DNA of 64,000 nucleotides, taken from the IMG/VR virus record IMGVR_UViG_3300022848_000014, positions 9,734 through 73,733 of that record; one strand, 5' to 3'. This document shows positions 29,379 through 55,200 of this stretch, piece after piece. The notes beneath the pieces were generated by a model. That model searched no databases. It was given only the letters and a program-made list of their open reading frames with translations, and was not told the origin of the DNA. Source of the DNA: a virus. Every line of letters begins with the position of its first letter. Within the stretch, counting starts at the first letter, position 1. The position numbers were made by a program, and so were the translations under genes.

Positions 29379-29462
29379 CATATTTCTCCGTAAGTACTCC
29401 GAAAGACGTTGCTCAACAGTCGCTTAATGCCATTCGAAGAGAACGGCACGAAGCTTAGTGTT
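29379..29462 (+). repeat. 84-bp array-anchor element (putative attI-like site), copy A
   Basis: Reverse complement of 45051-45134 with 2 mismatches; ends in the GTT core; internal hairpin GCTT-TGCC-TTC/GAA-GGCA-AAGC. Confidence 0.85.
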
Positions 29463-29473
29463 AGCTGCAAGTG

Positions 29474-35415: not shown

Positions 35416-35433
35416 TTGTGGTTTATTTGATTA

Positions 35434-35464
35434 CAAATGTAGCAGACTATTCTAGGAAAACAAA
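35434..35464 (-). promoter_or_regulatory. Bacteroidota housekeeping-sigma promoter TTTG-N19-TACATTTG
   Basis: Exact -33/-7 consensus with a 19-nt spacer, upstream of the leftward replication arm. Confidence 0.8.
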
Positions 35465-35472
35465 TTTTACAA

Positions 35473-36156: not shown

Positions 36157-36207
36157 ATGTATAAAAAAACCCCCATCTGCTTAAGATGAGGGTCAAACCT
36201 AACACTA

Positions 36208-36684
36208 CTATGAAAAGTTATGCCAACCAGGATTAATGTGCAAGAAAGAACTTGACAATCCTGAATTGAATATCCTATTATAGTCTCCGGGGTCTATATG
36301 CGCTGAGGCTGTCTTGTCGGGTAGTTCCAGGGCAGGAGGATTTTCAATATTTAGGTTATAAGTCCAGTATCGACTTTCCCTTGAGTCTGCTTCATGCTTC
36401 AAGTAGCAATTACAATAGGAATACTCTAAGTCTTCCTCTAATGTAACGAACATGTCGCCAGCTTCAGGGAATAGAGTCATTTCCAGACTTGAATAGACAC
36501 CGATAGTAAAATCGTTGTCAAGGGTCACATCAACTATGCTGATGTCAGGTGGGGCTTCTTCCACAGGGAATACCGTCGAGGCACTTGCGGAGAAAGAGAA
36601 CACCAAGATGGCCATTAAGCCGAACAGTGTTTTTTTCATCTTTTTGTTTTTAGTATAATAACATTTGATTCCAAACATAGCCAC
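36208..36684 (-). CDS. Secreted hypothetical protein
   Basis: Signal peptide MKKTLFGLMAILVFSFSASA from the internal ATG near 36639; followed by a terminator-like hairpin at ~36163-36193. Confidence 0.55.
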   Translation of the reverse strand: MAMFGIKCYYTKNKKMKKTLFGLMAILVFSFSASASTVFPVEEAPPDISIVDVTLDNDFTIGVYSSLEMTLFPEAGDMFVTLEEDLEYSYCNCYLKHEADSRESRYWTYNLNIENPPALELPDKTASAHIDPGDYNRIFNSGLSSSFLHINPGWHNFS

Positions 36685-37324
36685 AGATTTCGGTAAATCC
36701 TAATTAGTCTGATCTTCCGTTATTAACATTCATGCTGTTAATATCAGTCTAACAACTTTGTAATTGACTGAAAATCAAAATGCCCAGCACTTCGGGTACT
36801 GGGCATTTACTTCGAATAAAAAAATTGCTGTCTAAGTTTCGCTCGTTTGCGATACATTTGACGCTATGAAATTGGTATCGCACAATAGTACTCTAATTTC
36901 TTCTGAAGCAAAAACAATAGTCGAGTCTATCCGAGCAGGATGGGCTTTTTTTATATACATACCCTCCACGATGCAGTTTTCAGCTCTTTACTGCGTGATC
37001 AACAGAGAGAATAATAAAGTGGGGAGACTCTTAAGACAGACCATATCAAAAAAGTGGGGGCAACGCACACACACGACCCCCGACTTGGAAATTAACAAAA
37101 GATATATCTGATGCACAAAATTACACGTTTTTTTGGATTAGAAAAGCGGAGTAATCTGGTGGAATGCCAGTTCAAGGGTGTAGACGCTTAATGGGTAGTA
37201 AGTCTAAGCATTGCTTTAAATAGCTTTAGACTGAAGGTTCTTGCCTTTCCAAGGATAAAGTGTGAGGTATGTCCAATCGCCAACGACTTGTAGAAAAGTT
37301 GCAAACAAAACTTTTGGCTAAAAA

Positions 37325-37355
37325 TTTGCATCCAATCAAAACCTTATTACATTTG
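37325..37355 (+). promoter_or_regulatory. Bacteroidota housekeeping-sigma promoter TTTG-N19-TACATTTG
   Basis: Exact consensus; drives the rightward arm; ATG at 37374. Confidence 0.8.
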
Positions 37356-37373
37356 TCTCAAACCACACGTAAA

Positions 37374-37577
37374 ATGAGTAAAGATTTAAGCAAATACCAA
37401 GACGCATTTTTTGTCAGGCAAGAAGAAAAACAAGTAGCTAATTACAATGATGCTCTGGTTGACCCTAGAACTCGCGATGGCCTTGTGCCAGCATTCGCAT
37501 TCCAATTTATGATGAAGACCTATGACAAGCATCTGGGTCATGATATTGGGCGAATGATATTTATTGGATCAAACTAA
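37374..37577 (+). CDS. Hypothetical protein
   Basis: Start re-assigned downstream of the promoter. Confidence 0.6.
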   Translation: MSKDLSKYQDAFFVRQEEKQVANYNDALVDPRTRDGLVPAFAFQFMMKTYDKHLGHDIGRMIFIGSN

Positions 37578-37659
37578 ACATTGGCAGTGGGCATTGTGAA
37601 AACATCTTTTTTTGTGGTTAAGAAAAGTATTCGCAGTGCCCCTGCTTTAATTTAAAACC

Positions 37660-38037
37660 ATGGCAGAACTATTTAACCGTAATAAAGTAGCATCTAAAGG
37701 ATTGCACAATTACATCCAACGAATGCTTAAGGCAAAGGATAAACGCGAAGTCTTGAAATTATTGCGGGACTATGCGCCCATCACCAACAAAGCACAGCGA
37801 CTTATCCTTGGGTTAAAGCCAAACTACTTTAATGTGTTCATGATGCAGAGGGTAGAATACTACACCAATAAGCATGTGAGTGATGAAATGGTGATGTTAA
37901 GAGAAGTATTCGTTCCAGAATTATTGGAGCAAATCAAGGAGATAGCCGTTAAGGAAAATCGGAACGAAGAGAAGTTAGTCAAGAATTATATTTTAGGTAA
38001 AAACATAAAATCCAAACCGTATGTCAAAGAAAAATAG
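37660..38037 (+). CDS. Hypothetical protein
   Basis: 125 aa ORF. Confidence 0.6.
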   Translation: MAELFNRNKVASKGLHNYIQRMLKAKDKREVLKLLRDYAPITNKAQRLILGLKPNYFNVFMMQRVEYYTNKHVSDEMVMLREVFVPELLEQIKEIAVKENRNEEKLVKNYILGKNIKSKPYVKEK

Positions 38038-38314
38038 TGCAATTCCTGTTGGGGATAGAGTACTTGTAATCCCTGATCAAGCCCAGCAAGAGATGTTTGG
38101 GCTTATGATTCCCTCTCAAGCTCAAAAGAAAGTCCAGACTGGTAGAGTAATAGCTGTTGGTAAAGGGAAGGGCGAATTGGAAATGCAGACAAAGGCTGGG
38201 GATACAATTCTCTACAGTGACTTTGCTGGAACTGAAATCAAAATCGATGATGTTGTTCATATCATCATGCGTGAAACCGATGTTTATTGCATCCTTAAAA
38301 ATGAAGAAGTATGA
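38021..38314 (+). CDS. groES: Co-chaperonin GroES
   Basis: PVGDRVLV, GLMIP..A..K, GRVIAVGKG, KAGDTILYSDFAGTEIK. Confidence 0.95.
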   Translation: MSKKNSAIPVGDRVLVIPDQAQQEMFGLMIPSQAQKKVQTGRVIAVGKGKGELEMQTKAGDTILYSDFAGTEIKIDDVVHIIMRETDVYCILKNEEV

Positions 38315-40068
38315 GAAAAAAGTTAATTGAATTCGATAATGCCAAGGAAAAGATGGCTCTAGGGGCTAATAAACTGGCAAGGGCTGTTTCATGTACCCTG
38401 GGACCAAAAGGTAGGAACGTTGTGCTCTATCTTGAAGATGGCCGAATGCACACGACAAAAGATGGTGTGACTGTAGCACTCTTTACAAAGTTCTTTGATC
38501 AAATAGAAGATGCTGGTGCCACGTTCCTTCAGGATGCATCAAAGAAAACGGTTCACCAGTCAGGTGATGGGACAACTACTTGTACACTCGTAGCCAATGC
38601 GCTCATCCAGCAAGGGGTGACATACCTCAAGGATAAGATGCACTCTGCTGTGGAGTACACAGATGGAATTCAAAAAGCCTCTAGGAATCTAATCGAAGAG
38701 TTGGTGCAGGAGTCAATCGAAATCAATGGGGATTTAGATATGATTGAGAATGTTGCTAGGATAAGTGCCAACAACGATGCTGAACTAGGGAAAATCATCC
38801 GTGAAGCTATTGAGGCTGTGGGTTTAGATTCCATCATTCAGGCAGACGACAGTGGGGACAACACCACTTCAGTTAAAGTAGTAGATGGAATGGAATTCCA
38901 AAATGGATTCAAGCACCCTTACTACATTAATGACCATAAGGGTCGGTGTGTGTTTGATGACAAGAGTGACAAGGTGAAAGTGATCATTATAGACAATGAC
39001 CTTACGACACTGAAGCAAGTAATTATGATGATGAAGCATATTGGGGAGAACAACCTGAAGGCTGTCATTGTATGCAATCAAATGATTGGTGAAGCAGATA
39101 GTGTAGCCCTTGTCAATGTCCAAAATAATGGGCTAAAGGTTTGTGTAGTCAATGCCCCAGGCATGGGGGACCGAAGACGGGCTTATCTCAGGGATTTAGG
39201 GATATTCACTGGTGCCACGGTAATCGGTGATGAAACGGGCACGGAGATCGAAAATTTCAAGCCAGAATGGATGGGTACTTGTGAGAAGTTTGTGGCAGAT
39301 GCTAAGACCTCCCGATTCATTATGGGGGGTAACGTTCCTGACGTTGTTCAGGGCGATATTGATTCTTTGAAATTAAAGATGGTTAAGCCTGGCCCAGAGA
39401 GTTCAATGGAAGCAAGGGCTAATTACACAAGGCAAAAGCAAGAAGTAAAGGATCTCTACGAAAAGAAGAAGTTGATTACAAATGAGATCGGAAGTATTGA
39501 GACTCAAATTGGTAATACAACAGATGCCTTTGCTATCAAGAAGCACAAAGAACGCATTCAGAGGCTCAAGGGTAAGGCTGCAATCATCTTAGTAGGGGCA
39601 CAGACCACTCAAGAGCTTCGTCAAAAGAAAGATCGAGTAGATGATGCCATAAAAGCTACTCAAGCTTCAGTTGAGGAAGGAATCGTGCCTGGTGGTGGTG
39701 TCAGCTTCTATAATGCCATGAAAAGGGTAACGCTTAATGATCCTTATGCTGGTGATGAGACACCTGAGCAAATAGGTTACTACGCATTCCTAGATGTGAT
39801 GTCTGAAGTTCTGATTAAGATTTGCGAAAATTCAGGGTATGACGTTGCCTCTACTATAGCAAAGATGGAAGCTCGGAAAGACATGCAATTTGGTCTTAAC
39901 GCAAAGAGTGGTGAATTCTGCAACCTGATAGACGCAGGGATCATCAATCCTACTAAAGTTGATCGTGTAGCAATTGAAAACGCGACATCTTCAGCTTGCA
40001 CAATGCTATTGTCGGAGTGTGTTATATACCCCGATCCTGAAGCATTTGAAGAGGTGCCCCAGCAATAA
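38311..40068 (+). CDS. groEL: Chaperonin GroEL
   Basis: TLGPKGRNV, TKDGVTVA, GDGTTT, ISANND, EEGIVPGGG, GIINPTKV. Confidence 0.95.
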   Translation: MRKKLIEFDNAKEKMALGANKLARAVSCTLGPKGRNVVLYLEDGRMHTTKDGVTVALFTKFFDQIEDAGATFLQDASKKTVHQSGDGTTTCTLVANALIQQGVTYLKDKMHSAVEYTDGIQKASRNLIEELVQESIEINGDLDMIENVARISANNDAELGKIIREAIEAVGLDSIIQADDSGDNTTSVKVVDGMEFQNGFKHPYYINDHKGRCVFDDKSDKVKVIIIDNDLTTLKQVIMMMKHIGENNLKAVIVCNQMIGEADSVALVNVQNNGLKVCVVNAPGMGDRRRAYLRDLGIFTGATVIGDETGTEIENFKPEWMGTCEKFVADAKTSRFIMGGNVPDVVQGDIDSLKLKMVKPGPESSMEARANYTRQKQEVKDLYEKKKLITNEIGSIETQIGNTTDAFAIKKHKERIQRLKGKAAIILVGAQTTQELRQKKDRVDDAIKATQASVEEGIVPGGGVSFYNAMKRVTLNDPYAGDETPEQIGYYAFLDVMSEVLIKICENSGYDVASTIAKMEARKDMQFGLNAKSGEFCNLIDAGIINPTKVDRVAIENATSSACTMLLSECVIYPDPEAFEEVPQQ

Positions 40069-40105
40069 TTGAATGCAATTAGTTAAACCCTAAATACAGA
40101 GTAAA

Positions 40106-40369
40106 ATGCCAGAATTAGATAACGGTGAACCCCAAGCGTCAAGACCATTGACTTTTGGTGAGAAAGCAGTGGGACTAAGATTTAACCCAGGCGGTATGAC
40201 TGAAGTAGATGAGTGCAAATCTATCTTTGCAGAAGCAATTGATCAAATGCATGATTTCCGAGAGTTGGAAAGCTCTACCAAAGGTCAAAAGCGTCATGCT
40301 TCTATTGCCATTACAGAACTTGAGTCAGCACAAATGAGAGCCGTTAAAGCTCTTACTTGGAAAGACTAA
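40106..40369 (+). CDS. Acb2/Tad1-like protein (putative cyclic-nucleotide sponge)
   Basis: GEKAVG..FNP...K...A..ID...RHASIAITELESAQMRAVKA helical-hairpin motif. Confidence 0.6.
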   Translation: MPELDNGEPQASRPLTFGEKAVGLRFNPGGMTEVDECKSIFAEAIDQMHDFRELESSTKGQKRHASIAITELESAQMRAVKALTWKD

Positions 40370-40375
40370 AGTAAA

Positions 40376-40448
40376 GCCAAGGCTCATTTGCAAATTGTCT
40401 TTCATTGTGGCGGGTAGTAGGAGAATCCTACGACAAATGGGTCTTGGT
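40376..40448 (+). ncRNA. Structured intergenic element, copy 1
   Basis: Outer stem GCCAAGGCTCATTTG/CAAATGGGTCTTGGT, inner hairpin GTAGGA/TCCTAC; related to 40943-41013. Confidence 0.55.
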
Positions 40449-40452
40449 AAAT

Positions 40453-40559
40453 TCGGAAGTGGCGAAATGGTAGACGCTATTAATAGGATGATGTTGGTGG
40501 AAAAGAAAAGCGCACCCAACTAAAAAACATCCATGTAGGTTCGAATCCTGTCTTCCGAA
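40453..40559 (+). tRNA. tRNA-like RNA with no canonical anticodon arm
   Basis: Acceptor TCGGAAG/CTTCCGA, Leu-type D arm TGGCGAAATGGTAGACGC, T loop GGTTCGAATCC; central ~57 nt forms a long irregular hairpin. Confidence 0.65.
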
Positions 40560-40599
40560 CTAATAATCAAATAATTTATATTCATCTAAAAACCGCAAA

Positions 40600-40932
40600 A
40601 TGAACGAAGCAAAAATGTCAGAACCAGGATCAAGACAGACCTGTTCATCAGTATTACGTGATATTACTGATTCAATAGGCCATACCCAAGATGTTCTAAA
40701 CGAACTAGAGCGTAATATGGGTCAATTCTTTGACTCTTCCTCAGAAGATGATGCCAAAGGGCCCATAGCTGCAGAAGCAAAAAACTCCTTGAATGGTGAG
40801 ACAATCCATGAGGTAGTGTTTGGTCATGGTGACAAGTTTTCTTTTCACACGCTAAACCAAATTGCCCACTTAACTAGTACACAGTCGAGTCAATTGACAA
40901 GGATTATGGATCAAATAAACACGAACCTTTAG
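40600..40932 (+). CDS. Hypothetical protein
   Basis: 110 aa ORF. Confidence 0.6.
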   Translation: MNEAKMSEPGSRQTCSSVLRDITDSIGHTQDVLNELERNMGQFFDSSSEDDAKGPIAAEAKNSLNGETIHEVVFGHGDKFSFHTLNQIAHLTSTQSSQLTRIMDQINTNL

Positions 40933-40942
40933 TAAAACATAA

Positions 40943-41013
40943 GCCAAGACCCATTTGCTTTTTACAAATTGTAACTCGGCATGGGAAACTCCCATTAGTA
41001 GGTGGGTCTTGGT
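40943..41013 (+). ncRNA. Structured intergenic element, copy 2
   Basis: GCCAAGACCCATTTGC...GTAGGTGGGTCTTGGT, inner hairpin ATGGGA/TCCCAT. Confidence 0.55.
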
Positions 41014-41035
41014 AATTTTATAAACCACAAAAAGA

Positions 41036-42209
41036 ATGATTATTACAGCCAAACCAATTCGAATCGGTACTTCTGGGAGCAATGGTAAGTTCCGAAAAGA
41101 AGTTTCCTCATTGTACGACATTCATAAATGGATGAGTGAAAAGAGTGGTGAAATGCTAACGGTTAAGCTTAAGAAGAATCAACTTTTCTCTCAGCCCAAG
41201 ACTCATGCCGAAAGCCGTGAACAAGAGTATGCGATAAGACACCACGCAAAAAATTTCAGATCGGCAGGAGAAGGTTTACGATCAAGCCCCTTTACTTTTT
41301 GAGTAAATGAATAATTCAAAAAACATATTAGAGTCTTTTGATTTTCTGGACGAGCTAGGTAAAAGCTGGTCTAAATCCAGAATGAATGAGCCTGGCAGGA
41401 TTGTCAGAACATCTAAGGGTGTCATTGGGAGGATAGTAAACTCAGAGCCTTCAGTTACAAAGGGGAAAATAGCAGTCTATACCAAGGAAGATACTATCTT
41501 GTGTAGCCCTGACTCACTAAGAACAATTGGATTCATAAACTAAGATGAACGAGGATCACTTTGAATTTATAGAGTATCGGATGTCCATTATTGATGGTCT
41601 AGTCAGGAAAATAGCAGTTTACCGTGAGCGCCCAATTGTTGTGACTGGGAAGTTTATAGGGTTTAAAGAAATAGATTTTGATGAAATTGACCAGTTCCAA
41701 GACTCATGGACTGAAGAAGAGAAAGAATTATACAATCCAAACCACAATAATCTAAAACGCTAATGTCAACAGATGAAATTTATACTACTGGATTCCATGT
41801 AAAATCTTATGAAATCGTTACTGATTTTCTAGAGGAATTAACTTACAATGATCAATTTCACCCCGAAGGTGAGAGAACTGTTTTTGTCACAAAAACAAGG
41901 GAGGTTCCTGTTATTCTTTACAACACCGTTCTGTCTATAGACAAACCTGTTAAGGCTGGTAATCACTATATGGAAATGGAGACTGAAGCACTCTTTATTG
42001 CTGTGGGGACGGAGCTAGTGAGTGTTAAACTCTTGAATGAAGTTGAATTGTTTGCTTATAGCTCTCCTGTTAAATTGGTGCTTGTTAGTTCACCCTTTGA
42101 TGAAGCTGGCCAAGGATTACATCTTGGGGAAGAAGACATGCATTTGCGAGTACGTCCAATGTCACCACTAGACTGCTTTCCTGGTCCCATACCTACTGAA
42201 GAAGATTAA
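41036..42209 (+). CDS. Four small hypothetical ORFs (41036-41302, 41307-41543, 41545-41763, 41763-42209)
   Basis: Tightly packed plus-strand ORFs. Confidence 0.6.
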
Positions 42210-42231
42210 TCTACAATGATCGTTAATATCA

Positions 42232-42693
42232 ATGTACATATCAAAGAAAACAAGGGAGGTAGTCCGGTTGAAGTTTGGGGGGCTCTGCGCCTATTCTGGG
42301 ACTGTATTAGAGAGCGATTGGCAAGTAGATCACCTTAAGCCTTTGATTAGGGGTTATGATGGAGCCCCACGGTTTCCTGAGAGGCATTCAATTGATAACA
42401 TGGTTCCTTCTCAAAAAATCATTAATCATTACAAGGGAACACTCGATCCAGAAACCTTTAGGTCTTGGTATCTTGGGGGACTCCATGAGAGGCTGAAGAA
42501 ACTCCCCCGAAAAACTAGGGTCAAGAACACAAGAAACAGGAAGAGGTATTTAAGGCGTGTTGCCTCATTCTTTGATATTACACCTGACACGCCATTTTCA
42601 GGAATCTTTTATTATGAAATACATAAACCACAACATGGGACAATTAGAGGAAACACCAGAAGAAAAATCAAAAAGATCAGCACAACTAATTGA
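42232..42693 (+). CDS. HNH endonuclease
   Basis: KFGGLCAYSG...WQVDHLKP...NMVPS...NHYK. Confidence 0.8.
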   Translation: MYISKKTREVVRLKFGGLCAYSGTVLESDWQVDHLKPLIRGYDGAPRFPERHSIDNMVPSQKIINHYKGTLDPETFRSWYLGGLHERLKKLPRKTRVKNTRNRKRYLRRVASFFDITPDTPFSGIFYYEIHKPQHGTIRGNTRRKIKKISTTN

Positions 42694-42961
42694 GATGGCC
42701 AAGCTGTATCTGCTTCAGATTGACGAAAATCACTTAGAATCAGTGTCAACCCAGCTACACACACAAGCATCTAGGCAGGAGTCAATGTCCATCATTAATA
42801 TGCATTACTATCCAGAGAAGACGCAAATACTAAGAGCTCAGGCTGGTGCTTTGGGTGCTTTGTTGTCATTTATTAGTCATCTCAAGGAAATCGATCAGTT
42901 GAAAAAGACCTTAGACAAAGCCAAGCAGGGTAGGGAGCAAATAGATAGATTGTTTTTGTAG
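42635..42961 (+). CDS. Hypothetical protein
   Basis: ATG 42635 after an AAACCAC leader. Confidence 0.55.
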   Translation: MGQLEETPEEKSKRSAQLIEMAKLYLLQIDENHLESVSTQLHTQASRQESMSIINMHYYPEKTQILRAQAGALGALLSFISHLKEIDQLKKTLDKAKQGREQIDRLFL

Positions 42962-42964
42962 TTC

Positions 42965-43270
42965 ATGCGTCACAAAGCCTATAAAACTGACTACAGTTGG
43001 CATTATCTTCAGATCAAGGAAAGATTGAAGAATGCTTTCATAAAGGATGGATTCAGTAGATCTTTTTATGGTGATTACTTGAGTAAGGAAATACTCTATA
43101 GCCTCCTGTTTGAATTCAGAGTGGGTGATCCACCTAACTGTAGCTCTAGGGGCTCAAAGAAAGATTGGAGAGACTGGCATATTGTTCTTGAGACTCATGG
43201 GACTTGGCTCAAGTTTTATCAGTTCTATCTTTGTTCAGTTGATATTTATGAATGGAATAAAATAAAATGA
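42965..43270 (+). CDS. Hypothetical protein
   Basis: 101 aa ORF. Confidence 0.5.
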   Translation: MRHKAYKTDYSWHYLQIKERLKNAFIKDGFSRSFYGDYLSKEILYSLLFEFRVGDPPNCSSRGSKKDWRDWHIVLETHGTWLKFYQFYLCSVDIYEWNKIK

Positions 43271-43282
43271 AAACAGAGCAAA

Positions 43283-43507
43283 ATGAAAAACAATAAAATT
43301 ATAAGCAGTTTTAAATATTGGGCAATCACTAGAAAATGGTTGTGGCAAAGAGTCGTTTTTGATAATGGTGTTGTTGGCAGAAACTATCACAGATATGACC
43401 ATATCTTGTATTCTTATTGTCAAGGAATGGGTGATAATGGAGAGTATGGAGGTATTAATACCGTAATAAAATTACAAGTGGAATCATCTATGCGTAATTG
43501 TGCCTAA
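43283..43507 (+). CDS. Hypothetical protein, distal cassette remnant of array B
   Basis: Stop codon lies within the TGTGCCTAAC core. Confidence 0.55.
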   Translation: MKNNKIISSFKYWAITRKWLWQRVVFDNGVVGRNYHRYDHILYSYCQGMGDNGEYGGINTVIKLQVESSMRNCA

Positions 43508-43565
43508 CGGTTTGTATATGAAATCGGCTGACGATAGGAAGCTGTTTTATATACCGTGTTAGCCA
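43499..43565 (-). repeat. attC-like palindromic site B2
   Basis: Plus strand: TGTGCCTAAC-GGTTT-GTATATGAAA...TTTTATATAC-CGT-GTTAGCCA. Confidence 0.8.
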
Positions 43566-43602
43566 TCTGGCTGTGGTAAATTAAGAACTAAAATTAAATA
43601 GA

Positions 43603-44247
43603 ATGAAAATATTAATAGCTTGTGAGGAGAGCCAAGAAGTTTGTAAGGCTTTCCGAGAAATAGGATTTGAGGCTTATAGTTGCGATATGCAAGAATGTAG
43701 TGGTGGTAAACCTGAATGGCATATTGTAGGTGATGCAGTTGTAGAAGCGTATAGTGGTAAATATGACCTTATGATAGCGCACCCACCTTGCACTTATATT
43801 AGTAGAGCTGGTGCAAGATGGATGTACCCAACAGCAGGAAATTTAAGCCAAGAAAGATTTAATAAAGCAATGGAAGCGAAGGATTTGTTTATGAAATTAT
43901 TGAACGCTCCTATACCTTATATTGCTGTTGAGAACCCAACATTGTTAAAAGTAGTTGGATTGCCTAAACAAAGCCAAGCGGTGCAACCTTATGAATACGG
44001 ACACCCTTATAGTAAAAGAACTCTGCTGTGGATTAAAAATTTACCACTATTAAGCCCAACCAAAATAGTAAGCGAATATAAGCCGTACTTACCAAGTAAT
44101 ACAGGGGGCAAAAAACGAGGGCAGAAATATCAATTTAAGAACATAAGCCAAAAGGAAAGCAGTAAAACTTTTAGCGGAATTGCAAAAGCTATGGCTGAAC
44201 AATGGGGAAACTTCATTAAAAGCGATAATGTAGCAGCTTGTGGCTAA
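43603..44247 (+). CDS. Phage-type C5-methyltransferase-like protein, cassette B2
   Basis: ILIACEES, AYSCD, DLMIAHPPCTY, VENP, PYEYGHP..KRT.LW, AMAEQWG. Confidence 0.8.
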   Translation: MKILIACEESQEVCKAFREIGFEAYSCDMQECSGGKPEWHIVGDAVVEAYSGKYDLMIAHPPCTYISRAGARWMYPTAGNLSQERFNKAMEAKDLFMKLLNAPIPYIAVENPTLLKVVGLPKQSQAVQPYEYGHPYSKRTLLWIKNLPLLSPTKIVSEYKPYLPSNTGGKKRGQKYQFKNISQKESSKTFSGIAKAMAEQWGNFIKSDNVAACG

Positions 44248-44312
44248 CGTGTTGTATATGATTAAGCGATAGCGACCCTTTTTAGGGTTAATTATATACG
44301 GTGTTACCTGCA
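44241..44312 (-). repeat. attC-like palindromic site B1
   Basis: Plus strand: TGGCTAAC-GTGTT-GTATATGATTAA...TTAATTATATAC-GGT-GTTACCTGCA. Confidence 0.8.
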
Positions 44313-44335
44313 GTACGGATTATTAAAAACGAAAT

Positions 44336-45040
44336 ATGAAAAGAAACAAAATATATTTAGGGGATTGTTTAGAGTTGATGCCTAAACACGTAGAAGATAA
44401 AAGCGTTGATATGATTTTTTGCGATTTACCTTATGGAACAACACAAAACAAATGGGATAGCGTTATACCTTTTGAGCCACTTTGGGAACAATATAAGAGA
44501 GTTATAAAAGATAATGGAGCTATTGTGTTATTTGGCTCACAACCTTTTACAAGTGCTTTAATTATGAGTGAACCTAAAATGTTTAAATACTCTTGGTATT
44601 GGTTAAAAAATAGAGCTACTGGAGTTTTAAACTCTAAAAAACAACCGTTAAGAAATATTGAAGAAATTTGTGTTTTTAATATAAAGAAATATAACCCACA
44701 AGGATTGATTGAGGTGAACCAACCAAGTAGAAACAGCAAGAAAGATTACGATAACTATGGGAAAGGAACTAGTAAACAATACACTCAAAAATACACAAAC
44801 TACCCAAAGCAATTGATTGAGTTTAATAGCGTGCAAAGAACAACGCACCCAACAGAAAAGCCATTAGATTTAATTGAATATATGATTAAGACTTACACAA
44901 ATGAAGGTGATTTGATACTTGATAATACTTGTGGAAGTGGAACAACTGGAAGAGGAGCGAAGAACTTAAACAGAGATTATATTATGATGGAGCAAGAAGA
45001 GAAGTATTATGACATTGCTTGTAAAAGACTACTAACTTAG
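44336..45040 (+). CDS. DNA N6-adenine/N4-cytosine methyltransferase (beta class), cassette B1
   Basis: DLPYGTT, HPTEKP, DNTCGSGTTG. Confidence 0.92.
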   Translation: MKRNKIYLGDCLELMPKHVEDKSVDMIFCDLPYGTTQNKWDSVIPFEPLWEQYKRVIKDNGAIVLFGSQPFTSALIMSEPKMFKYSWYWLKNRATGVLNSKKQPLRNIEEICVFNIKKYNPQGLIEVNQPSRNSKKDYDNYGKGTSKQYTQKYTNYPKQLIEFNSVQRTTHPTEKPLDLIEYMIKTYTNEGDLILDNTCGSGTTGRGAKNLNRDYIMMEQEEKYYDIACKRLLT

Positions 45041-45050
45041 TATTGCAGGT

Positions 45051-45134
45051 AACACTAAGCTTCGTGCCGTTCTCTTCGAATGGCATTAAGCGACTGTTTA
45101 GCACCGTCTTTCGGAGTACTTACGGAGAAATATG
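45051..45134 (-). repeat. 84-bp array-anchor element (putative attI-like site), copy B
   Basis: Inverted copy of 29379-29462, 82/84 identical. Confidence 0.85.
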
Positions 45135-45140
45135 GGTTTT

Positions 45141-45262
45141 AAAAAAATAGCTCACATCTCCTGAGCCTGGGCCGACACCTCCCGCAGTTGTATGTTGTCG
45201 CCAGTTTCATGCTTCAGGTACCCTCCACATGACGCAGAATTCAGGCCCGGACATGTGAGCTA
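45141..45262 (-). ncRNA. Candidate ~120-nt structured small RNA
   Basis: TAGATTTG promoter element at 45268-45275; closing stem ATAGCTCACAT..TCC..GCCTG/CAGGC..GGA.ATGTGAGCTAT followed by a T7 run. Confidence 0.5.
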
Positions 45263-45272
45263 TAGTGCAAAT

Positions 45273-45908
45273 CTAGCTTTTTATCCAATCTGAGCAAACA
45301 TGTATTTCACTCTTATGTCTGAGTCGCATAAATACCCCATGGCCTTCTCGTGATCCTGCGCTATTGGTGTTCCCCTCTACTGTAAGGACGTACCCATCCC
45401 CGAAGTCCATTACAATTACCCCCACATGAGCCACACGCTTTAGTCTAGTGAAATAGAGTCCAAAAGTCCAACCTTGTTGGAATGTAATATGATCGCCATC
45501 GATACCCCTTTGCCAGACAATTTTATCTTTTGGAAACCAACAGGGACTCCATGCGGGACAGGACGGACCTTCTAATCCTATACTCAGGAGTCCATAGTTT
45601 GCGAAGCAAGCACAATATGGGTTTCCAGGCTCAACTCCGCACCCATTGAAGAAAAGATCGATTAGCGGACCTCTATTGGAGGCGTTATCCTCTTTTGCCC
45701 CCAGATATGATTTCAGGGTATCCACATACCATTTTTCTGTGGGCCTGGGTACTGAGATGTCTAGGTATACTGTGTCTCGGATGAATATACTATCCTTTTT
45801 CAAGGGCTCTTGGTATGTATCTGTTATAGTATGGCCGCTATCATTGCAGCCGCACAAAGAACAAAGAATGCATAGATAGATAAGAAAAATAGGGGTCTTC
45901 TGAAGCAT
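45273..45908 (-). CDS. CHAP-domain peptidoglycan hydrolase (endolysin)
   Basis: PYCACFA (catalytic Cys), HVGVI (His), TVEGNT; hydrophobic/lipoprotein-like N-terminus. Confidence 0.85.
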   Translation of the reverse strand: MLQKTPIFLIYLCILCSLCGCNDSGHTITDTYQEPLKKDSIFIRDTVYLDISVPRPTEKWYVDTLKSYLGAKEDNASNRGPLIDLFFNGCGVEPGNPYCACFANYGLLSIGLEGPSCPAWSPCWFPKDKIVWQRGIDGDHITFQQGWTFGLYFTRLKRVAHVGVIVMDFGDGYVLTVEGNTNSAGSREGHGVFMRLRHKSEIHVCSDWIKS

Positions 45909-46267
45909 TGGAATTCTGGTTTTTCGGTTTTTCGTATTGTCTTAATATCATTCACAAACTCACTATCTAATCCTACCCCTTCACCATCTGGATCGGTGAA
46001 GTAGTCAGTGACTAATGGGAAGAACCTCTTAAGCATGTACCAAGCGCCCATTAAGACGATTGAGAACACACCGATACCCGCCAGAGACGACATTAGGTAC
46101 CTCATTGATATTGCTGGCATTTCATCCGGGCCAAAAATGTACCCAAGGCCGTACAACCCCCCATATACAATTCCAACCCACACTAGGATATTAATAACGT
46201 CTTTCCCCATTACCAGGGACCAAGCTTTCTTGATCAATTTAATTGATTTACTTTTTTGCATTTTCAT
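45824..46267 (-). CDS. Holin-like membrane protein
   Basis: Three hydrophobic segments; overlaps the endolysin. Confidence 0.55.
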   Translation of the reverse strand: MKMQKSKSIKLIKKAWSLVMGKDVINILVWVGIVYGGLYGLGYIFGPDEMPAISMRYLMSSLAGIGVFSIVLMGAWYMLKRFFPLVTDYFTDPDGEGVGLDSEFVNDIKTIRKTEKPEFQCFRRPLFFLSIYAFFVLCAAAMIAAIL

Positions 46268-49200
46268 CTTTCATTTTTTGAATTGATAAATCTCGTTTGG
46301 CTTTACGCTCTTCGTCTCTTATTTTTTTTGCTGCAGCTCTTTCTAGTGCAACTTTAACTCCAGGCCCCTTTTCAAGAGCTAGTTCCCATGTTTTCTGTGT
46401 AATGTCTACCTCATACTTTTTAGCCATCATATCCTCTAAAGCTTTTTGGGCTGTTCGATTAATTCCTGGCTTATCAGGATTAACCACTTCCTTAAGATAT
46501 GAGTAGTGAACTAATTTTTGTTCTTTCTCAGTGATCCTTTCTTGTGGGATTTTCTCGATGTAGTTGTAGAGGGTCATTGTATATCGATAAGTCTCGTCGT
46601 CTAGGTCTTCAACAAACCTACGGACTAAAGGCATTTGGTTCACACTTCCCTCTTTATCAAAAGTAGCTATGCGAACTGCTTCTTGGGCTATACCCCCAAA
46701 AACCTCATTCATTATGTAGTCAAAAGTCTCTGGACTAATACTCACACCCATTTTGTCATAGAGTTGTTGGGCACCCTCTATGTAGGCTTCATTTGTACTT
46801 TTATGGTAAATCTCATGATCAGCCTTTCCAATAGTAAATTTCGGATAAATTGGACTCATCTTATAATCTTTATTCATGGAGACCTCAGCACTTTGGGAAG
46901 CAAGTACTGGCAAAAAGGCACTTACCCAGTTAGCTTGGTTCCCACTCACAGGGTCAACCACCATTTGTACCGAATGCAATTGATTAAAGAAAGCTCTGGC
47001 TGGTGTGATCCTGCCAGATTGAAGGTCATAAGCAGCTTCACCCATTGACATAAATAGTCTTAGGAAAGAATAGGATTTCGGAATCTTGAAGGGCTTTGTT
47101 GGTTCAACTGGATTATAGATGTAAGTGTTCTGAGTCCAGTCCATCGGTGATTCGGTCATCATTTTTAGCTCATCCTCTTCATCCATCATGCTGTAGAGTA
47201 GCATTTTGTTTAGGTAGGCAAATGAGGCTGCTGCTGCCAGAGCTTTTCTACCAGACTTTGACTTGAGTAATTGCCCAGTCTTGGCCACACCCTGTATTCC
47301 TGCATTAAGGAAAAGGTACATGCTATTGAGAATAGTCATTTGAGACCCTTTTTTCTCAAAGTTTAGGGATATGTTTTTAGCGGCTCCCGCAGCCTGTTGT
47401 GGGGATAACCCTGCATCCCTGAGTGATGCATATACGGCTAGTCTGTTGGACATCTCAAAAACCTCATTGATTCCTAAGGCTGTGTCCATCATGGCGTGAA
47501 GCGTCTCTTTGGCCATGTTTGTCCCTTTGTTTGCTTTAGACTTCTCACCAAGTTTTTTTAAGCTGTCAACCTGATCTTGTATCTGGCCATAGTTAGCCCA
47601 TGACATGTACATCCCTTCAGCCCTTGCCTCACTCAGATATTGCATCATGTCACCCCCTTGGTCTGTGGCACCAAAGTAGTTTTTAGCAATTGTGGGTCCA
47701 GCAATACGAAGGTTTGCTAGATATGCACGTCGAATTCCCTTTAAGTCATATCGATCTTTTTCCACTCCTAAGTTTGCAAGGACATCCTGTGTATCACGAG
47801 CAAAGTTGGGAACACCAAAGAATATGTTAAGGGATGTTATGAGAGACCGTTGGAAATTAGTCATTGCCCCAAAACCTTTGATAATTTTGCCCTCCCACTT
47901 TCCTGTCTTTCGATTACTTGGGATAAGCGCATTATAGAGTCCTTCATGCCTAACCTCAAGATAAACGATTTTACCCCCGGGCATACGAACCTTTACTGAG
48001 TTCGTTTTCACATTGTCAGGAACAAGGTCATTGTAAGAGATTATGTCTCCCGTATCTGGATCGATGTCAGGTATTCCTCTTGCGGTATGCACTTTCCATA
48101 CTGAAGGATCGGCATTTTGACGAGCAAGTTCCACGAGCGCTCTATTGGCATTATTCTTCTCTACTTTCTCAATGGTTTTGGCCAGGTTTACTACCGCTTG
48201 ATTTAATGGGTCATAGACTTGCTCTGAAGTATATGAGCCCCTTCCTTCAGCGGCCAGGATGTCAGGAGAAGTGCTACCACCTTTTTTCTTTGACTTTGAG
48301 TTAAAGAATGCAGGGTCAATAACAACGGGCATGTAGTTTGACCATTCAATATCTGATCCTGTTTTATCCCCATTTAGTAGGGCTTGGTATTGCTTTTCGT
48401 CGATGAAATCGTTTTCATAGAGTATATCAAGATTCTTTTCCAAAACTTCCTCCCTGAATTCTTGGGCAAACTCATCTAGGTCTTTACGCTTTCCATCATA
48501 GCTATCTAATATGGCCTGTGCGTCTTTATCGCTCATTCTGGCTCCTTCCTCTACAATTCGATATAATTCCACCTCATTGTTCTCGATAGCCTCAATTTGG
48601 GCAGCGTAGAACTGTTGTCCTCTTGTGGTTTCAGCATTTTCCATCTTAGCAGTTAGTTGAGCAACTTTTTCTTCCTGCTTCTTGATTGACATATCCCTGA
48701 GTCTTGCATTACGCTCAGGAACGTGAAGGGCGTACATGAATTGGGAAAGGTCTGTGAGTGTTAATCCCTTCTTTTTCATTCTTCCATTAAGGGAAGCTTT
48801 GTTCTGCTTTCTCTTTTCAAATACGGTGCTTCTGCCTGATATTTGGAAAGTGGTACCAGGGTCCGCGCCATAAATATAGGTCTTGAGTGCATCGATTTGT
48901 TCTGCAGTCTTTGATCTAACAAGCTCTCGTTTCGTGTAAGCATTAAGTGCGTCTGGTAAGTTTTTACCCTTAAGCTTCTCGATAGACTGTTGAATTTTCT
49001 TAAGCCATATATCCCCATCTTGGAAAGCTTGCCTGAAGCTGGTAAACGTTTCAAAGCCTTCTGTTTTAGATAGGGGTATTGTCATGCCAGATTCATTCAG
49101 AAAATCAATTTCCCTTTGAACCCTTCCCATTAGGACATCGGCCAATTTCTCATCCATGCCTAGTTTATCTACGACAAACCTCGTGATTGCTGCAGGGTCA

Positions 49201-52200
49201 GCGCCTCCTTGCATGGCCATTACGATTGAAGCTCGAATCTTCATGAAGTCCCTTGACATGTTGACTGTCATAAACTCCTTGTAAAGGTTCTCATTACGAA
49301 GCTTACCATCAAACATTGCTCTCAAGTGAGGGGAAAGCGCCTGATTCATGGTAAGCTCTTCAGCCACTTTTTGGGTAAATCCCTCTAGTGTCAAGTTCTC
49401 AATTTCCTTGGCATTCAATTTACCAGACCACATACCAGAGGCTATGAGGGGCTTAGTAAATTGATTGAATGCTGTGCTTAAGAACTTGCGAAATTTCTTT
49501 CTGAAGTTGTCGGGCTGCTTATCAACCTCTAAAGCTTTATCGGCTATGGCATCAGTCAACGCATCTAAGTATGGGTTCCTAGACTTCCTTTTTTTGGCTT
49601 CTGCCAAATACTTTGTGCCTTCCATCATTTCCTTCACTTGATGAAGTAACTCAGGTCGGTTTTGCATTGCTGGGAGTATCCATGCTTTTGCAAAAGTCTT
49701 GAAAGTTTCCTTTGGGGTGATTGTGGCAGGATTGAAGTAGATGTTCCCATCCATGCTCACAATTACTTGTTGCCCCGCATATTCATCTCCGAGTGCTTCA
49801 ACTTGCTCTTTGAATTCTGAGAAGTCAAATGAAACTTTTAGTCCAGGGAATGCTTTACCCAGTGCAGTTGCAATCTTGGACGCATATCTGGTATTGGCCT
49901 CAGTTGACTCTTGCGTGTCTGGGAGTGTTACCGATTGCATATCGATACCTTCGAAAGCCTGTATAACTTGATCCCCCAATAGATCCCCAAAAGTCATCAC
50001 GGCCATTGCCTCTGCACCGTTGTATCCTTCAGCTTCTAAAGCCGCAATGATTTCCTCATTAGTAAACCCTTGTGATTGCAGCAATTCTATAATGGCCTTA
50101 ATCTCTGCGTGTTCATTAAATCCTACTTGGAAGAGGGGTTTGCTCTCAGCCTCGACTTTATCAATTTCAACATTACGATCATCAAATACGACATAATTTG
50201 CGTCGGTGTATTCCTTATTCCGTGGTTTTGGTATACCCATGGAGAGTGTTCCAACAGGATAGCGGATGCCATCGATTCCTTTATGGGTCAACCTCATTGA
50301 TGCTTGTTGTGGACTCATGTATTTAGTGAGCGTAAAATACAAGAAAGCTCCACTAAAGAGATCCGCATCAGTTAAGAGCTCGACTAATTTATCAGTGTCA
50401 TTATCAAGATCGTATTGCTCGTTAAAATGCTCCATGAGCACCTCATGTAAATCTGGTTCAGCAGCGTATGTTTTCCCATCATTTGTGTCAAAATAAATTT
50501 CGTAACCTAGTGCCTCATAATCACCTTGCTCTGAATTGCTTACATCAACAGCTACACTGTTTGGGTCTGGTACTTCTAATATTCTACGAAGTTGATCTTC
50601 TGGCAGTGCGTTTTTCCATTCTAGGTACTCGTATTCACTTGGTTCTTTCCCTTTATGAATGGTAGTATGATAAACTTGGCCACCACCAATTGTCCATGGC
50701 TTAACCTCTCCGCTTTTTATTAGTGGAACAATTTTGGCAAAGGCAGCAGCTTTTTTATGTGTGGAGCTTTCTTTATTTGGATCATTCTTAGCCCCTTCAG
50801 CCCACTTCTTCTCAAAGTATTCTGCCCTCTTAATGTAATCGGCCTTGAGTCTAGGGGATGCATTCATGAGGTTTGATTCAAACACCTGATCTAAAGCCTC
50901 TCTCTCGTTATAATCAAAATCTAAAGGATCTCCGTCTTTTGATTTGATTTCCCAATTTTTAGTGTCTTGAATTTTTCGTGAGAGTGTTGTAGCATAATCC
51001 TGGGCTATTTCTTTTTTACTTGTGAAATAGAGGCCATAGCCAAAAGCTTGAGCACCCTCACCAGTCCCAATCTTATCTGAGTTGAACTTATCAAATAAAA
51101 ATGGTGTTCCGTGATATGCTCTGACTTCTTGGCTGGTCCCTTGATTTCCAAAAAGGATTATTTGTTCTTCTCTTGATATTGGTGATCCATCCCCATAATT
51201 TTCAGTCGCAGATGGTGGGGTTTCCTTTCGTTGTCGAGGACTCATTGCAGCCCTGTTCTGTACGTTTCTAGCCTCAGTCTCTCCCGCTAGTGATTGGTAT
51301 AGCTTGTGAGCCACATCACTAGGGACTCTTTTAGAAATTATTGCTGTTTTCTCTGAGGTTAATTCTTCGGATTTGAGTGTTTCAATTTCAGCTAGTAAAA
51401 AATCACGTCTACCATCAAGTGTTTCTAAAGCTTCTTGTAACACTAAACTTACGGGCTTACCTAAGTTCGCATCTTCGCTCTGAGAACTGAAATACATTAA
51501 TTCAGTTGATGCATCATAGGAGCCTAATTTCTCAGTCCCAAAGTTACCTTGTATAAGAGCATTAAGATTGTCTTTAGCTACCCTTTCCTCTCTTTGAAGT
51601 TTCTGAATTTCATCCGTTAAATATCCATTTTCATCAGGTCTTTCTTTTTTATTCAGGTCATACAGTTCTTCTGTCTCTTTCTTTTTTTGCCTAAAAAGAA
51701 GTGTCAGATCAGAAAGTTCATTTCTAAACGCTTCATCAGTCTGAAATTTATTAAGAACATCCTGAGTAACCTTTTTGCTATCAGATACATCTAGCAGGTC
51801 TTTTCTGGTTGCAGTGATTGCAGACGTAGAAAGTTCATTTTGCTTGCTTGCAGGTAGAGATGCTATGACTGATTGTGGATTGCCTCCCATAGCAAAACCT
51901 TCAATCATTTGAATAGCGTGTTGCAGTTCGTGTATGAAGGTCGATCCCTTGTCTTGAGCGTATGGAGTTACTTGAAGCACTTTTGTTTCAGAGTTGTAAG
52001 ACCCCTGAAGCCCCCCGAAATCCATGAAGCCACCTTTTTTTGATATTTTAATATCAAGAAGAGCTGGGTAAAGCTTGAATATTTCTTCGTATGGACTAAT
52101 GACTTCGGTTATTGAAACTGTTTCAGTACCAAAAAGTTTCTGTGTAGCGAGAGCTTCAAACGCTTCAGTATTGAACATTGGTGGTTGTACTTCATACTTC

Positions 52201-55200
52201 CACTTTCCGTCAGTACCTCTTGCCCATCCTGTTAATCCACGAATGTATTCTGCACCATCTTTAATTCCTGGGTTTAGGTTGTTCTCTAATAATTGCGCCC
52301 GGCCTAACTTCTCCTTGACTTCATTATTCAGATTAGCATTTGAACCCACAAACTGGAATAAGGCTTTCCCATTTGGAGATAGACTATTTGGGTCTATTGG
52401 ACCACCTTCTTCAGGTGTTAGTTTCACACCTAGCTCTTGCCCTCCCAGTAGATCGAATATAGCTCCATCTAGGAATTCATCGAGGGTCATCTTGTCAATG
52501 GATTCTGTCTTTTGCATGAAGAAGGTTTCACCCAAATATGCTTTCATCTTCTCGATCCAGGCAGTGAACTTATCTACCATGGCCTTTGAGCCTAGTGCCT
52601 TACTTAAGTTCTTGGCACCCCTCATCCCGATCGCTTGTACTAAAGCCTCATCTCGTTTCTCGTATTCAGTTAGGTGTGCATAGGCAGGATTGTTCTTGAT
52701 CTCTTGGAATATGGCAGTTTCCTTCATCAACTGATTGGCCTCATTGTAAAGGTCATAGTTGGTGGCCTTCATGTGCTCAATGTAGATGTGGGCAAACTCA
52801 TGTATGGCAGTATCCCTAGTTGCTGCTTGTGGGTTTATGTAGACTTTTCCGTTCCAATAAAACCCTTTGACTTTGTTGGTGTCCACGGGTATTCCCATCT
52901 CCGCAGACACTTTGGCTGCTGCTTCATTAAACGCTTCTTGATCATAAACCACTGGAACCTTAATTGCCTCAAGTAATTGCTTGATGGAGTTCCCTATGAA
53001 TTCGGAAACACCTTTGCGCCTGGTCTTAATTACATCGGTAGCAGCCTTAGTTCGTACTTGGAAAGGAGTGTCTGGAACTGGTTCATTTGCCTTTGCTTCA
53101 GCTTTTTTAGCATCGTCCTTTTTGATTTGGGCCTGGGCACTTAGTTTGTTGAATTTTTTCCCAGTGAGTTCCCCCATTAATTCATCAATGGCAACTTGCC
53201 CAGGTGTTCGGCTAATTCCATTAGGATTGGCAATCATAAAGTCCACGATGTCATTACCGTCTACCTGAACAGCTTCGGTACCCGTGTCCCCTTCTCCTTC
53301 TGAGATATTGTCAGCTAGTTTTGCAATATCTGAAACTATTTTTTCCCCTTTCTTGGCAAACCATGTTTTCGCAAGGTTGAAAGTGATGTTTGTCGCATTG
53401 CTGTTTCTGATAAAGTCTTCTCTCGATATAGAGTTCTTGCCTAAGTTCTCAGATATGAGTCTATCCATTTGGCTCAGACTTGATTGCTGAAGAGTCTGAT
53501 CCATGTATGCCTCAGAAAGACTTGTTTTAATCTCGTCTAAAATCGTATCATATTGATCGCGGATTTTGTCAGACATTTCCTGTAAGTGGGCTTCTGTGTT
53601 GCCAGGGTCTTTTATAATCTTCTGCTCTGTTTCGTACTGAATATCTTGCATTATTTGACTTGGAACAATCTCTTGGCTCCCGAATATCTCATCCTTGATA
53701 CGTTGTACAACATCAAATATCTTTTTGACTGCTTCAGTAGACTTGGGCGGTGCTGGCTGGCGTTTGGCATTTTTACCCCTCTTAGTCTTTACCACTTTAG
53801 CTTTAGGGGCTTTAGTGGATGAGAGTCCTTCCGATAAAGCTTCAGTAGATTTTTCTAGGTTTCCTCCCTTGACTGCTTTTGTGACTTTTTCTGCAATTGG
53901 GTTTTTGTCAGTCTTACCTTCAGTTTGAACAGGCTTGTCGGGCTTTGGATCACCATCAGTTTTAGTGTCAGCTTTGTTCTCGACTTTTCCATCTGTTTTC
54001 TTTTTTGCCTCTAGTAAGGGAGAAATTAGTTTGTCATACTTCTGGTAAATCGCATCAAACTTCTTCTTGTCAGAATCCGAAAGTTTAGATCGATCTACTT
54101 TACCGTCTACCCTTGCTTCATCTATGTTTGGAATGGCTTCGGATAGTTCGGTTTGCTCTTCTGCTCGAAGTGTTTCTACCTTTTTTGTTACTTCTTCTTG
54201 CTCCCGTACTTCGGTGTCGGTTTCGGCTTTATTGTCTTTTTTACTTGGTAGGTCTTTTTTACTGGCTTTTTCATCTGCTTTTTTCTTTTTTATGGATTCA
54301 TCAAGAATGGCATTTGCTTCAGCAACATTCTTCATTGATCCAGCATTATAATCTTCAACACCTTTTCGAACTAATCCTGCAAGGATTTCCCTGTCCTGTT
54401 CAGACATTTCCATAGGGCTGTCATAGCCCATTCTCTTTAAGCCTTCATCATTAAAGAAATTCCAGACATCTAATTCATCTTTAAATTTAGTAGCCTCTTC
54501 AATCTCACTGGCTCTATCTTGAACTATCTCTTCTGCCCTTTGTTGGGCTTCTCTTTCGGGAGTAGATTGTTTTAGTCCAAGGTCTTCTGCTTTTCCTGTT
54601 TCTTTTAGTTGTTCCCAGGAGTCATAGGTTTGATCCCCGTCAGTATAGCTACCATCTTCCATTCGAACAAACGTCCAACCATCTGAAGCGGTAACAGAAG
54701 ATGGCTCATCATCAATATCATCATCAATATCATCATCTATGAATTCATCGGCATCAGCATCGTCAGCATCGGCATCATCATCAATATTATCATCTATGAA
54801 TTCATCGGAATCAGCATCGGCTTCTTTTGCGGCTAAGTCTCTTGCGTTTTCTTTCTCAGCGTCAAGTTGGCTTTGCCTTTTTGATACATTTTCATCAGTC
54901 AAGTCTGGCATTTCACCTTCCCTTGATGGATCGTTTTCTATGTCGCTTTCGATACTCTTTTGCGCTTCGTCTTTGGTTGTCTTTTTAATTGGTTTCTTCT
55001 TCTTAACTGGCTCTGCCTTGTCATCGATCTTTGGTTGATTAGAGGTTTTTCCAGGTTCACGTTTAATACCGAGTATGTCATCCATCTCAAGTTGAAGTTC
55101 CGCAGCTCTTGTTTTCCCCCTTGCTCGGACAGCAGCATTAGCCCCGTCCATATCACGCTCAAGCTTGGTAGCCTCCATCATCAAATTGGTGAACCTCATT

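Follow-up and report, generated by a model that had tools for sequence, protein, structure and literature searches.

The stretch of viral DNA analysed here, referred to as the window, comprises 64,000 nucleotides of the IMG/VR virus record IMGVR_UViG_3300022848_000014 (positions 9,734 to 73,733 of that record). The complete record is 73.7 kb long, carries direct terminal repeats and originates from salt-lake metagenomes. The locus under study, termed array B (window positions 43283-45134), forms the 3′ end of a rightward phage operon and contains three open reading frames (ORFs) on the + strand with short intergenic elements between them. The window holds a second locus of the same kind, array A, whose coding strand is the − strand; arrays A and B possess five and three hairpin sites (B1, B2 and z in array B), respectively. 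Read from 5′ to 3′, array B is composed of a far-end box (43496-43508), unit B-1, unit B-2, z and a 36-nt flank, and its features, together with the corresponding end of array A, are listed below. Loci outside the window carry L numbers.

43283..43507, + strand: ORF of 74 aa, no family found; the last backbone-like gene, with its stop codon TAA inside a core.
43496-43508, + strand: far-end R box AATTGTGCCTAAC, at the 3′ end of the 74-aa ORF.
43508..44247, + strand: mobile unit B-1, the 214-aa gene preceded by site B1 and a 5′ leader, with the AA|C crossover points as bounds.
43506..43560, + strand: attC-type site B1 (AAC to GTT), with a 5-nt spacer after AAC, an imperfect stem and a 3-nt spacer before GTT.
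43603..44247, + strand: protein of 214 aa with a predicted C5-cytosine-methyltransferase fold; phrog_757 'DNA methyltransferase', E 2e-49.
44248..45052, + strand: mobile unit B-2, in which site B2 and a leader precede the N6/N4 methyltransferase gene.
44246..44305, + strand: attC-type site B2 (AAC to GTT); covariance model match 44239-44312, 54.4 bits, E 5e-9.
44336..45040, + strand: N6/N4 DNA methyltransferase of 234 aa; PF01555 (N6_N4_Mtase), E 8e-31.
45051..45098, + strand: terminal hairpin z, the array anchor in attI position; attC-like, but with A instead of G after AAC.
45099..45134, + strand: flank of z, 36 nt, common only to the other array end (29379-29414) and absent beside other backbones.
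29379..29470, − strand: second z with its flank at the end of array A, inverted with respect to the array B copy (z itself 29415-29462; covariance model match 29408-29469).

The ORF 43603-44247 is flanked by GTTAGCCA at 43558 and TGGCTAAC at 44241-44248, and the ORF 44336-45040 by GTTACCTGCAGTAC at 44303 and GTATTGCAGGTAAC at 45040-45053. An original prediction, made from the sequence of the window, had described these motifs as brackets of two methyltransferase cassettes; all of them were recovered in place, as were the two stop codons said to lie inside TAAC cores (TAA at 43505-43507 and at 44245-44247), while the ORF 44336-45040 terminates with TAG (45038-45040) immediately 5′ of its core. 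Both genes are encoded on the + strand and run, as had been stated, in the direction of the surrounding operon. No matching GTTAGGCACA start box was found upstream of the 74-aa ORF, which behaves as backbone rather than as a cassette. Both arrays may place the folding strand on the lagging-strand template; the GC skew across the phage follows the gene strand and nothing more.

Each intergenic element consists of an R box ending in YAAC, a spacer of 4-6 nt, an imperfect stem with a variable loop, a second spacer of 2-4 nt, GTT and a second R box. A covariance model (R1) derived from 15 short sites, four of the window and the others from further phage contigs, was run with filters off and recognized exactly eight sites in the 64 kb at E ≤ 3.4e-4, the next match having an E-value of 0.68. 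All eight are intergenic, reside within the arrays (five in A, three in B) and are oriented on the coding strand; no further site was detected by the model in the rest of the phage genome. Site B1 matches over 43499-43567 with 53.7 bits (E 7e-9). In the alignment of the 15 sites 82.9% of the cells are paired and nine pairs exhibit compensatory changes on both sides, a result not equalled in any of 500 shuffled alignments. Because of this shuffling result, the confinement of the model sites to the arrays and the poor score of the next match, the site pattern is more than chance. The AAC and GTT triplets are invariant in all 15 sites apart from one AAT, and the purine/pyrimidine rule RYYYAAC/GTTRRRY is loosely kept, as seen in the cores GCCTAAC...GTTAGCC, GGCTAAC...GTTACCT and AGGTAAC...GTTTAGC. 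A site identical to B1 is present at L015:3897-3965; in L016 the loop of B1 is kept and the stem changes are compensated. The hairpin body of B2 recurs at L098:3903-3976, there upstream of a methyltransferase homologue of 65% identity. At one stem position a G.T pair is found in 14/15 sites, and since this pair would become C.A on the other strand, it argues for folding of the coding strand, presumably as single-stranded DNA. A cruder hairpin scan proved non-specific, producing about 25 matches in shuffled sequence, and its additional candidate at 12258-12351 received no support from the covariance model.

The start box of each unit is complementary to the end box of the same unit over 8-13 nt in six of six units of the window, although the boxes differ between units, and the same holds for all four units of L001; in unit B-2, for example, the start GTTACCTGCAGTAC is complementary to the end GTATTGCAGGTAAC. 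We interpret this self-complementarity of the units as the footprint of a circular intermediate. The box GTTAGGCACAATT at 31961, previously taken as the start of a cassette A4, is on the − strand actually the end box of a nucleoside-deoxyribosyltransferase/PAPS-reductase unit and thus plays the same role as box 43496 in array B. The 13-mer shared between these two boxes had been considered as a sign of a common cassette pool, for which it offers little evidence; whole cassettes that are 99.6-100% identical in other backbones argue strongly for it.

The position of the crossover was deduced from related contigs. L008 differs from L004 by an insertion of exactly 471 bp that lies between AAC and z; their backbones are approximately 99% identical over 3.5 kb, and their flanks are identical at the insertion (left 209/209). 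The 471-bp insert contains, in this order, a hairpin site, GTTATAGGGC, a small gene and the end box GCCCTATAAC. Contigs with a different backbone (Y-backbone) contain, at 100% identity, a segment of array A, 30427-30723 (297 nt), which comprises site A3 and a gene for 65 aa; the segment is bordered by AA|T and AA|C, and the aberrant T of the AAT core has moved along with the unit. A counterpart of unit B-1 with 99.6% identity over 758 nt occupies L015:3895-4651. This complete phage contig is 64.6 kb long, carries an array of at least six sites and shows otherwise no similarity to window positions 42500-45500 at ≥ 80% identity. L015-L019, the four besides L015 being 87-92% identical, all diverge immediately after GGCTAAC, and the homology of unit B-2 to L109, L114 and L122 stops at 45053. 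That the crossover takes place at AA|C, where the coding-strand hairpin has its 5′ foot, is well supported by these comparisons, because the 471-bp insertion, the borders of the 297-nt unit, the breakpoints of B-1 and the neighbours of z described below fall there. Each hairpin consequently forms a unit with its downstream gene, and z is a fixed anchor. The comparison of the locus across related phages had been set beforehand as a test of the original prediction, and the locus proved to vary, with its breakpoints on the cores. The cassette interpretation is therefore supported, provided that the hairpin is assigned to the downstream gene and not to the upstream one.

Assembled contigs of four runs labelled 'salt lake metagenome', the label also carried by the runs in which the whole stretch occurs, were aligned to the region. 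Breaks occur at 43497, at 44242-44249 and at 45055, where a contig of run X5 ends. In one contig (depth 30.7) position 44242 is joined directly to z, which corresponds to B-1 without B-2, and in another the 65-aa unit of array A is joined directly to z. Run X8 covers the cassette bins at a depth of 293 versus approximately 3 for the backbone. In run X10 the backbone is absent and the cassettes are present at depths of 8-20; its contigs begin at 43497, with a depth of about 1 before and 19 after this position. Several joints are placed inside leaders or genes, for instance at 44326 and 31912. None of the public runs listed for the stretch is an RNA data set.

Both arrays terminate with z. Window positions 29379-29470 and 45043-45134 constitute an inverted repeat (I1) of 92 nt with 97% complementarity, whose copies bracket 15.6 kb; a repeat of this length breaks short contigs. 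Exact matches of the 35-nt core of z were found in four viral and eight metagenome loci, some records being common to both collections, and none in 185,579 species genomes. In these loci z has five different neighbours to its left and either of two backbones to its right, one of the neighbours being combined with both, and the similarity among z-bearing contigs extends no further than AAC on the left side and GTT on the right side. Given the crossover position, z is a fixed anchor in attI position next to which new units enter. The 36-nt flanks of z would reflect either homogenised array ends or a phage-specific binding site; they contain two CGGAG repeats 11 nt apart. Two inverted arrays also exist in L009, which has a different z-bearing backbone; they are located at 8629-9567 (−) and 12699-13035 (+), about 3 kb apart, and both contain the same 65-aa unit.

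The N6/N4 methyltransferase identity proposed for the 234-aa protein agrees with its Pfam match, and the enzyme is probably adenine-specific, as adenine-methyltransferase models of NCBIfam match with scores under their cut-offs. A gene paralogous to that of the 234-aa protein is present in array A (29474-30307), the two forming an inverted repeat (I2) of 76% complementarity. The 214-aa protein had been described as C5-methyltransferase-like. It matches no Pfam or NCBIfam model, including PF00145, and a sequence search against the PDB retrieved nothing meaningful. An AlphaFold model built on 22 homologues reached a mean predicted local distance difference test (pLDDT) score of 85.3, and its top folds in Foldseek are exclusively C5 DNA methyltransferases (M.HaeIII, M.HhaI, DNMT3A; E ~4e-6, template modelling (TM) score 0.48). 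In the alignment of the 22 homologues the PPC and ENP motifs are invariant, as is the ACEESQ that takes the place of the glycine-rich motif I, and a target-recognition domain is lacking. The description is thus right for the modelled fold, which is borne out by PPC and ENP, and does not extend to motif I and the target-recognition domain; a methyltransferase activity would be an extrapolation from the fold. The phrog_757 family is widespread in phages (43603-44247, homologues L015-L094) and perhaps does not represent an ordinary S-adenosylmethionine-dependent methyltransferase.

The 73.7-kb record encodes no tyrosine or serine recombinase, Y1 transposase or integron integrase (PF00589, PF00239, PF01797, TIGR02249), and these recombinase families are also absent from three other near-complete array-bearing phage records and from Polaribacter phage P12002L. 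An enzyme acting on the sites would therefore have to be supplied in trans. The tyrosine recombinase gp037 adjacent to the array of Cellulophaga phage phi18:3 was considered and rejected as a phage counterpart of the bacterial enzyme described next, as it showed no BLASTP similarity to it (best E 3.5) and matched the XerD model weakly.

A 21-nt pattern taken from the commonest hairpin type matched a Chitinophaga genome bin (L175), in which two sites lead to an attI-like sequence and a convergent gene for a 370-aa tyrosine recombinase (L175:2102-3214). This recombinase scores best with the XerA / integron-integrase model (208 bits), matches TIGR02249 in two pieces only and aligns end to end with XerA; compared with VchIntIA, 23 residues replace 65 in the segment carrying the IntI-specific insertion. 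The first cassette of this bacterial array, directly adjacent to the attI-like sequence, is of the phage type: its hairpin core is identical to that of site A4 (31/31 nt; R1 64.6 bits), its gene is placed on the sense strand of the site, and its leader resembles that of B-1. The second cassette (L175:529-1659, −) encodes a secreted esterase of the polyhydroxybutyrate (PHB) depolymerase type with a type IX secretion sorting tail, so that ordinary ecological cargo is carried by bacterial arrays. Close homologues of the recombinase (E < 1e-104) are present in about 27 of 301 sampled Bacteroidota genomes. A conserved attI-like site, YAAC-T.GTTTATA, lies within ~100 nt of the stop codon of the recombinase gene in ~20/28 loci and is followed by chained sites of ~124 nt each. 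On one Bacteroidota chromosome (L213, G018:C12:215300-227500) at least 14 chained sites within 12 kb lead to the attI-like site and an insertion-less recombinase. Phage and bacterial arrays differ in gene direction. In bacterial arrays 18/20 genes are opposite to the sense strand of the site and co-directional with the recombinase, whereas in phage arrays 21/21 genes are on the sense strand (Fisher 9e-10, although the units lack independence). Compared with host cassettes, those of the phages are therefore reversed and read in the direction of the anchor.

For the helicase-like protein encoded beside the arrays, the sole relatives found, of ~24% identity, are from Flavobacterium phages; close relatives of this protein were found in none of the viral contigs. 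A near-identity search with window positions 29000-46000 against GenBank phages gave no match.

On the basis of these data we consider array B to be, with high probability, an integron-type cassette array that lacks an integrase of its own, depends on a host recombinase in trans and carries methyltransferases as cargo. In the postulated mechanism, site-specific recombination at AA|C accounts for both the insertion and the excision of units. This point, the 5′ foot of the coding-strand hairpin, corresponds to the position canonically cleaved on the 'bottom' strand of integrons. A circular unit would recombine with z or another site, new units entering next to z. The recombinase would most probably be an Xer-like tyrosine recombinase of the Bacteroidota host without the IntI insertion. 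The inserted genes would be expressed within the phage operon, reading toward z, and would probably protect the phage DNA from host restriction.

Several observations weigh against this scenario. The gene of B-1 is found behind a different hairpin in L017 and without any hairpin in L018, the homology starting within the leader in both cases; homologous recombination in conserved 'frames' thus presumably acts beside the site-specific route. The stems lack the extrahelical bases used by canonical attC sites, the 9-bp inner stem being unbulged in 12/15 sites. The phage-derived model R1 produced one weak match near 24 bacterial recombinase genes; as it misses the G+C-richer bacterial sites, the link between the phage and bacterial site families rests on their shared grammar and one hybrid locus. 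The 214-aa protein is devoid of the usual cofactor-binding motif I, and its methyltransferase activity is not assured. Finally, the action of any enzyme on B1, B2 or z is extrapolated, the sole assay on a site of this kind being a published one with IntI1, to which we now turn.

The strongest alternative assumes that the attC sites are of the ordinary kind and are used by a classical host IntI, the phage array being an integrase-less outpost of the classical system. The core grammar (RYYYAAC / GTTRRRY) and the cleavage position are indeed the same, and IntI1 recombined the site P12002L_attC2 of Polaribacter phage P12002L in vivo (PMC9892861). However, the absence of extrahelical bases from the 9-bp inner stem is unfavourable for this enzyme, and Bacteroidetes are regarded in the literature as almost devoid of IntI. 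The bacterial arrays of the same grammar moreover adjoin the recombinase that has 23 residues in place of the 65 of VchIntIA and aligns end to end with XerA, and the gene orientation in the phages is opposite to the canonical one (21/21). A classical IntI as the responsible enzyme therefore appears unlikely to us.

Another possibility is that the hairpins are regulatory stem-loops, i.e. terminators, promoters or RNA-processing sites, and that the genes are shuffled by homologous recombination alone, as proposed for promoter-stem-loop cassettes of T4-type phages. It would accommodate the location of the hairpins on the coding strand, where the G.T pairs become G.U in RNA, the exchanges that break in conserved leaders rather than in cores (joints 44326 and 31912) and the lack of a phage-encoded recombinase. 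Many independent comparisons, however, place the breakpoints exactly at AA|C, regulation leaves the start/end complementarity of the units unexplained, and the same grammar recurs in bacteria, where arrays adjoin an attI-like site and a tyrosine recombinase gene. A scan of the + strand of the array detected no terminator-like sites; a sigma-70 promoter scan found fewer sites than expected by chance, with a model that does not cover Bacteroidota promoters. Regulatory stem-loops alone are accordingly a very improbable explanation. That array B is a fossil, with cassettes acquired once and now immobile in this phage lineage, is the least probable of the three, for although no close backbone relative is available for comparison and the far-end box is without a partner, unrelated backbones contain units of 99.6-100% identity, a single-cassette polymorphism exists between 99%-identical backbones, and the 'salt lake metagenome' runs show alternative junctions together with cassette depths far above those of the backbone.

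Returning to an integron-type array with a recombinase supplied in trans, we further propose that Bacteroidota phages keep their own pool of 'reverse-oriented' cassettes, borrow the Xer-like recombinase of the host and dock the cassettes at z, thus operating a counter-defence integron. This extended scheme might equally well prove right or wrong. If it applies, phages could swap DNA-modification genes at the pace at which their hosts swap defence cassettes, and, owing to the orientation rule, phage cassettes and host cassettes would each be expressed only in the platform of their own pool. Integron cassettes have recently been shown to store anti-phage defence systems of bacteria, and array B would be the mirror image, in which a phage stores DNA-modification genes as cassettes. 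The natural variants indicate cassette exchange between unrelated phages in one lake, and z, B1 and B2 offer a concrete set of substrates for a recombinase class treated as 'not IntI' by the integron field. They also suggest that standard integron finders miss the system of a whole phylum and its phage partners. For phage biology and therapy, such arrays might provide a fast route to host-range change through evasion of restriction.

Some further features of the window were noted outside array B. A match to the type-P3 twister ribozyme (RF03154, 50.9 bits, above the gathering score) lies at 16912-16981 (+) within an early + strand gene block. Between arrays A and B a GroEL-type chaperonin gene is located at 38311-40068 (+; PF00118 E 6e-57; phrog_5725). 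About 1.1 kb past array B, a single ORF of 3664 aa extends over 46248-57242 (−), on the strand opposite to array B. Two tandem copies of 187 nt, 76% identical, occupy 33970-34348 in and around the ORF 33956-34363, just inside the far end of array A.

With three sites in array B, five in array A and no integrase in reach, both arrays agree with the definition of clusters of attC sites lacking integron-integrases (CALIN), which comprises at least two attC sites. Phage attC clusters carrying methyltransferases are already published: Qi et al. 2023 (PMC9892861) reported attC clusters without integrase in virulent phages, including P12002L with two predicted methyltransferase cassettes, and took the divergent site directions in this phage as possible mosaicism. 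The window resembles the P12002L CALIN in the virulent type of the phage, the Bacteroidota host, the integrase-less attC array and the N6_N4 methyltransferase cargo. The site grammar and the end box AATTGTGCCTAAC are the same, the leader is related (CTGGTGCG...CACAAAAC), and P12002L carries a methyltransferase gene that is ~69% identical in DNA. The published work consists of predictions and IntI1 assays and does not include the crossover side, the downstream-gene unit, the anchor, inverted arrays in pairs or a host recombinase other than IntI. Our literature search likewise found no account of the crossover side, of a unit made up of a site plus its downstream gene or of a conserved anchor, nor of paired inverted arrays, reversed gene orientation or a link to an insertion-less recombinase; no description of Bacteroidota arrays beside an Xer-like insertion-less recombinase was found either. 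Recombinases without the IntI domain near attC sites were explicitly dismissed by Cury et al. 2016, and Bacteroidetes appear nearly devoid of integrons in the IntegronFinder 2.0 study.

Canonical integrons share with the phage arrays hairpin sites with AAC/GTT cores, whose folded strand is cut at AA|C (equivalent to G|TT in the opposite strand). As in canonical integrons, including the sedentary chromosomal ones and the 'inverted integrase' group, the unit ends bear the presumed footprint of a circle, and the array would grow from one fixed site. In contrast to them, the phage lacks IntI, the inner stem is free of the extrahelical bases that the IntI-specific domain reads, and the anchor is a hairpin instead of a double-stranded attI. 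Moreover, a canonical cassette carries its gene on the top strand, followed by its attC site, whereas in the phages 21/21 genes are on the folded ('bottom') strand, with the site first and the gene reading toward the anchor.

The Xer-like arrays of Bacteroidota are built on the same pattern, in which a stem is separated from YAAC-G by a spacer of 5-6 nt and from GTT by one of 2-3 nt; R boxes of ~11 nt are chained between units, and one bacterial first cassette is of the phage type. Their sites, however, are mostly ~124 nt long and G+C-richer than those of the phage, and 18/20 of their genes are on the other strand. Their anchor is the YAAC-T.GTTTATA site by the recombinase gene and not z, while the phage has neither a recombinase gene nor an attI-like site of that type beside its array. 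A precedent for a host Xer enzyme acting on a hairpin of folded single-stranded phage DNA is given by CTX-phi attP and XerCD, although that reaction integrates the whole phage at dif and does not move cassettes within an array.

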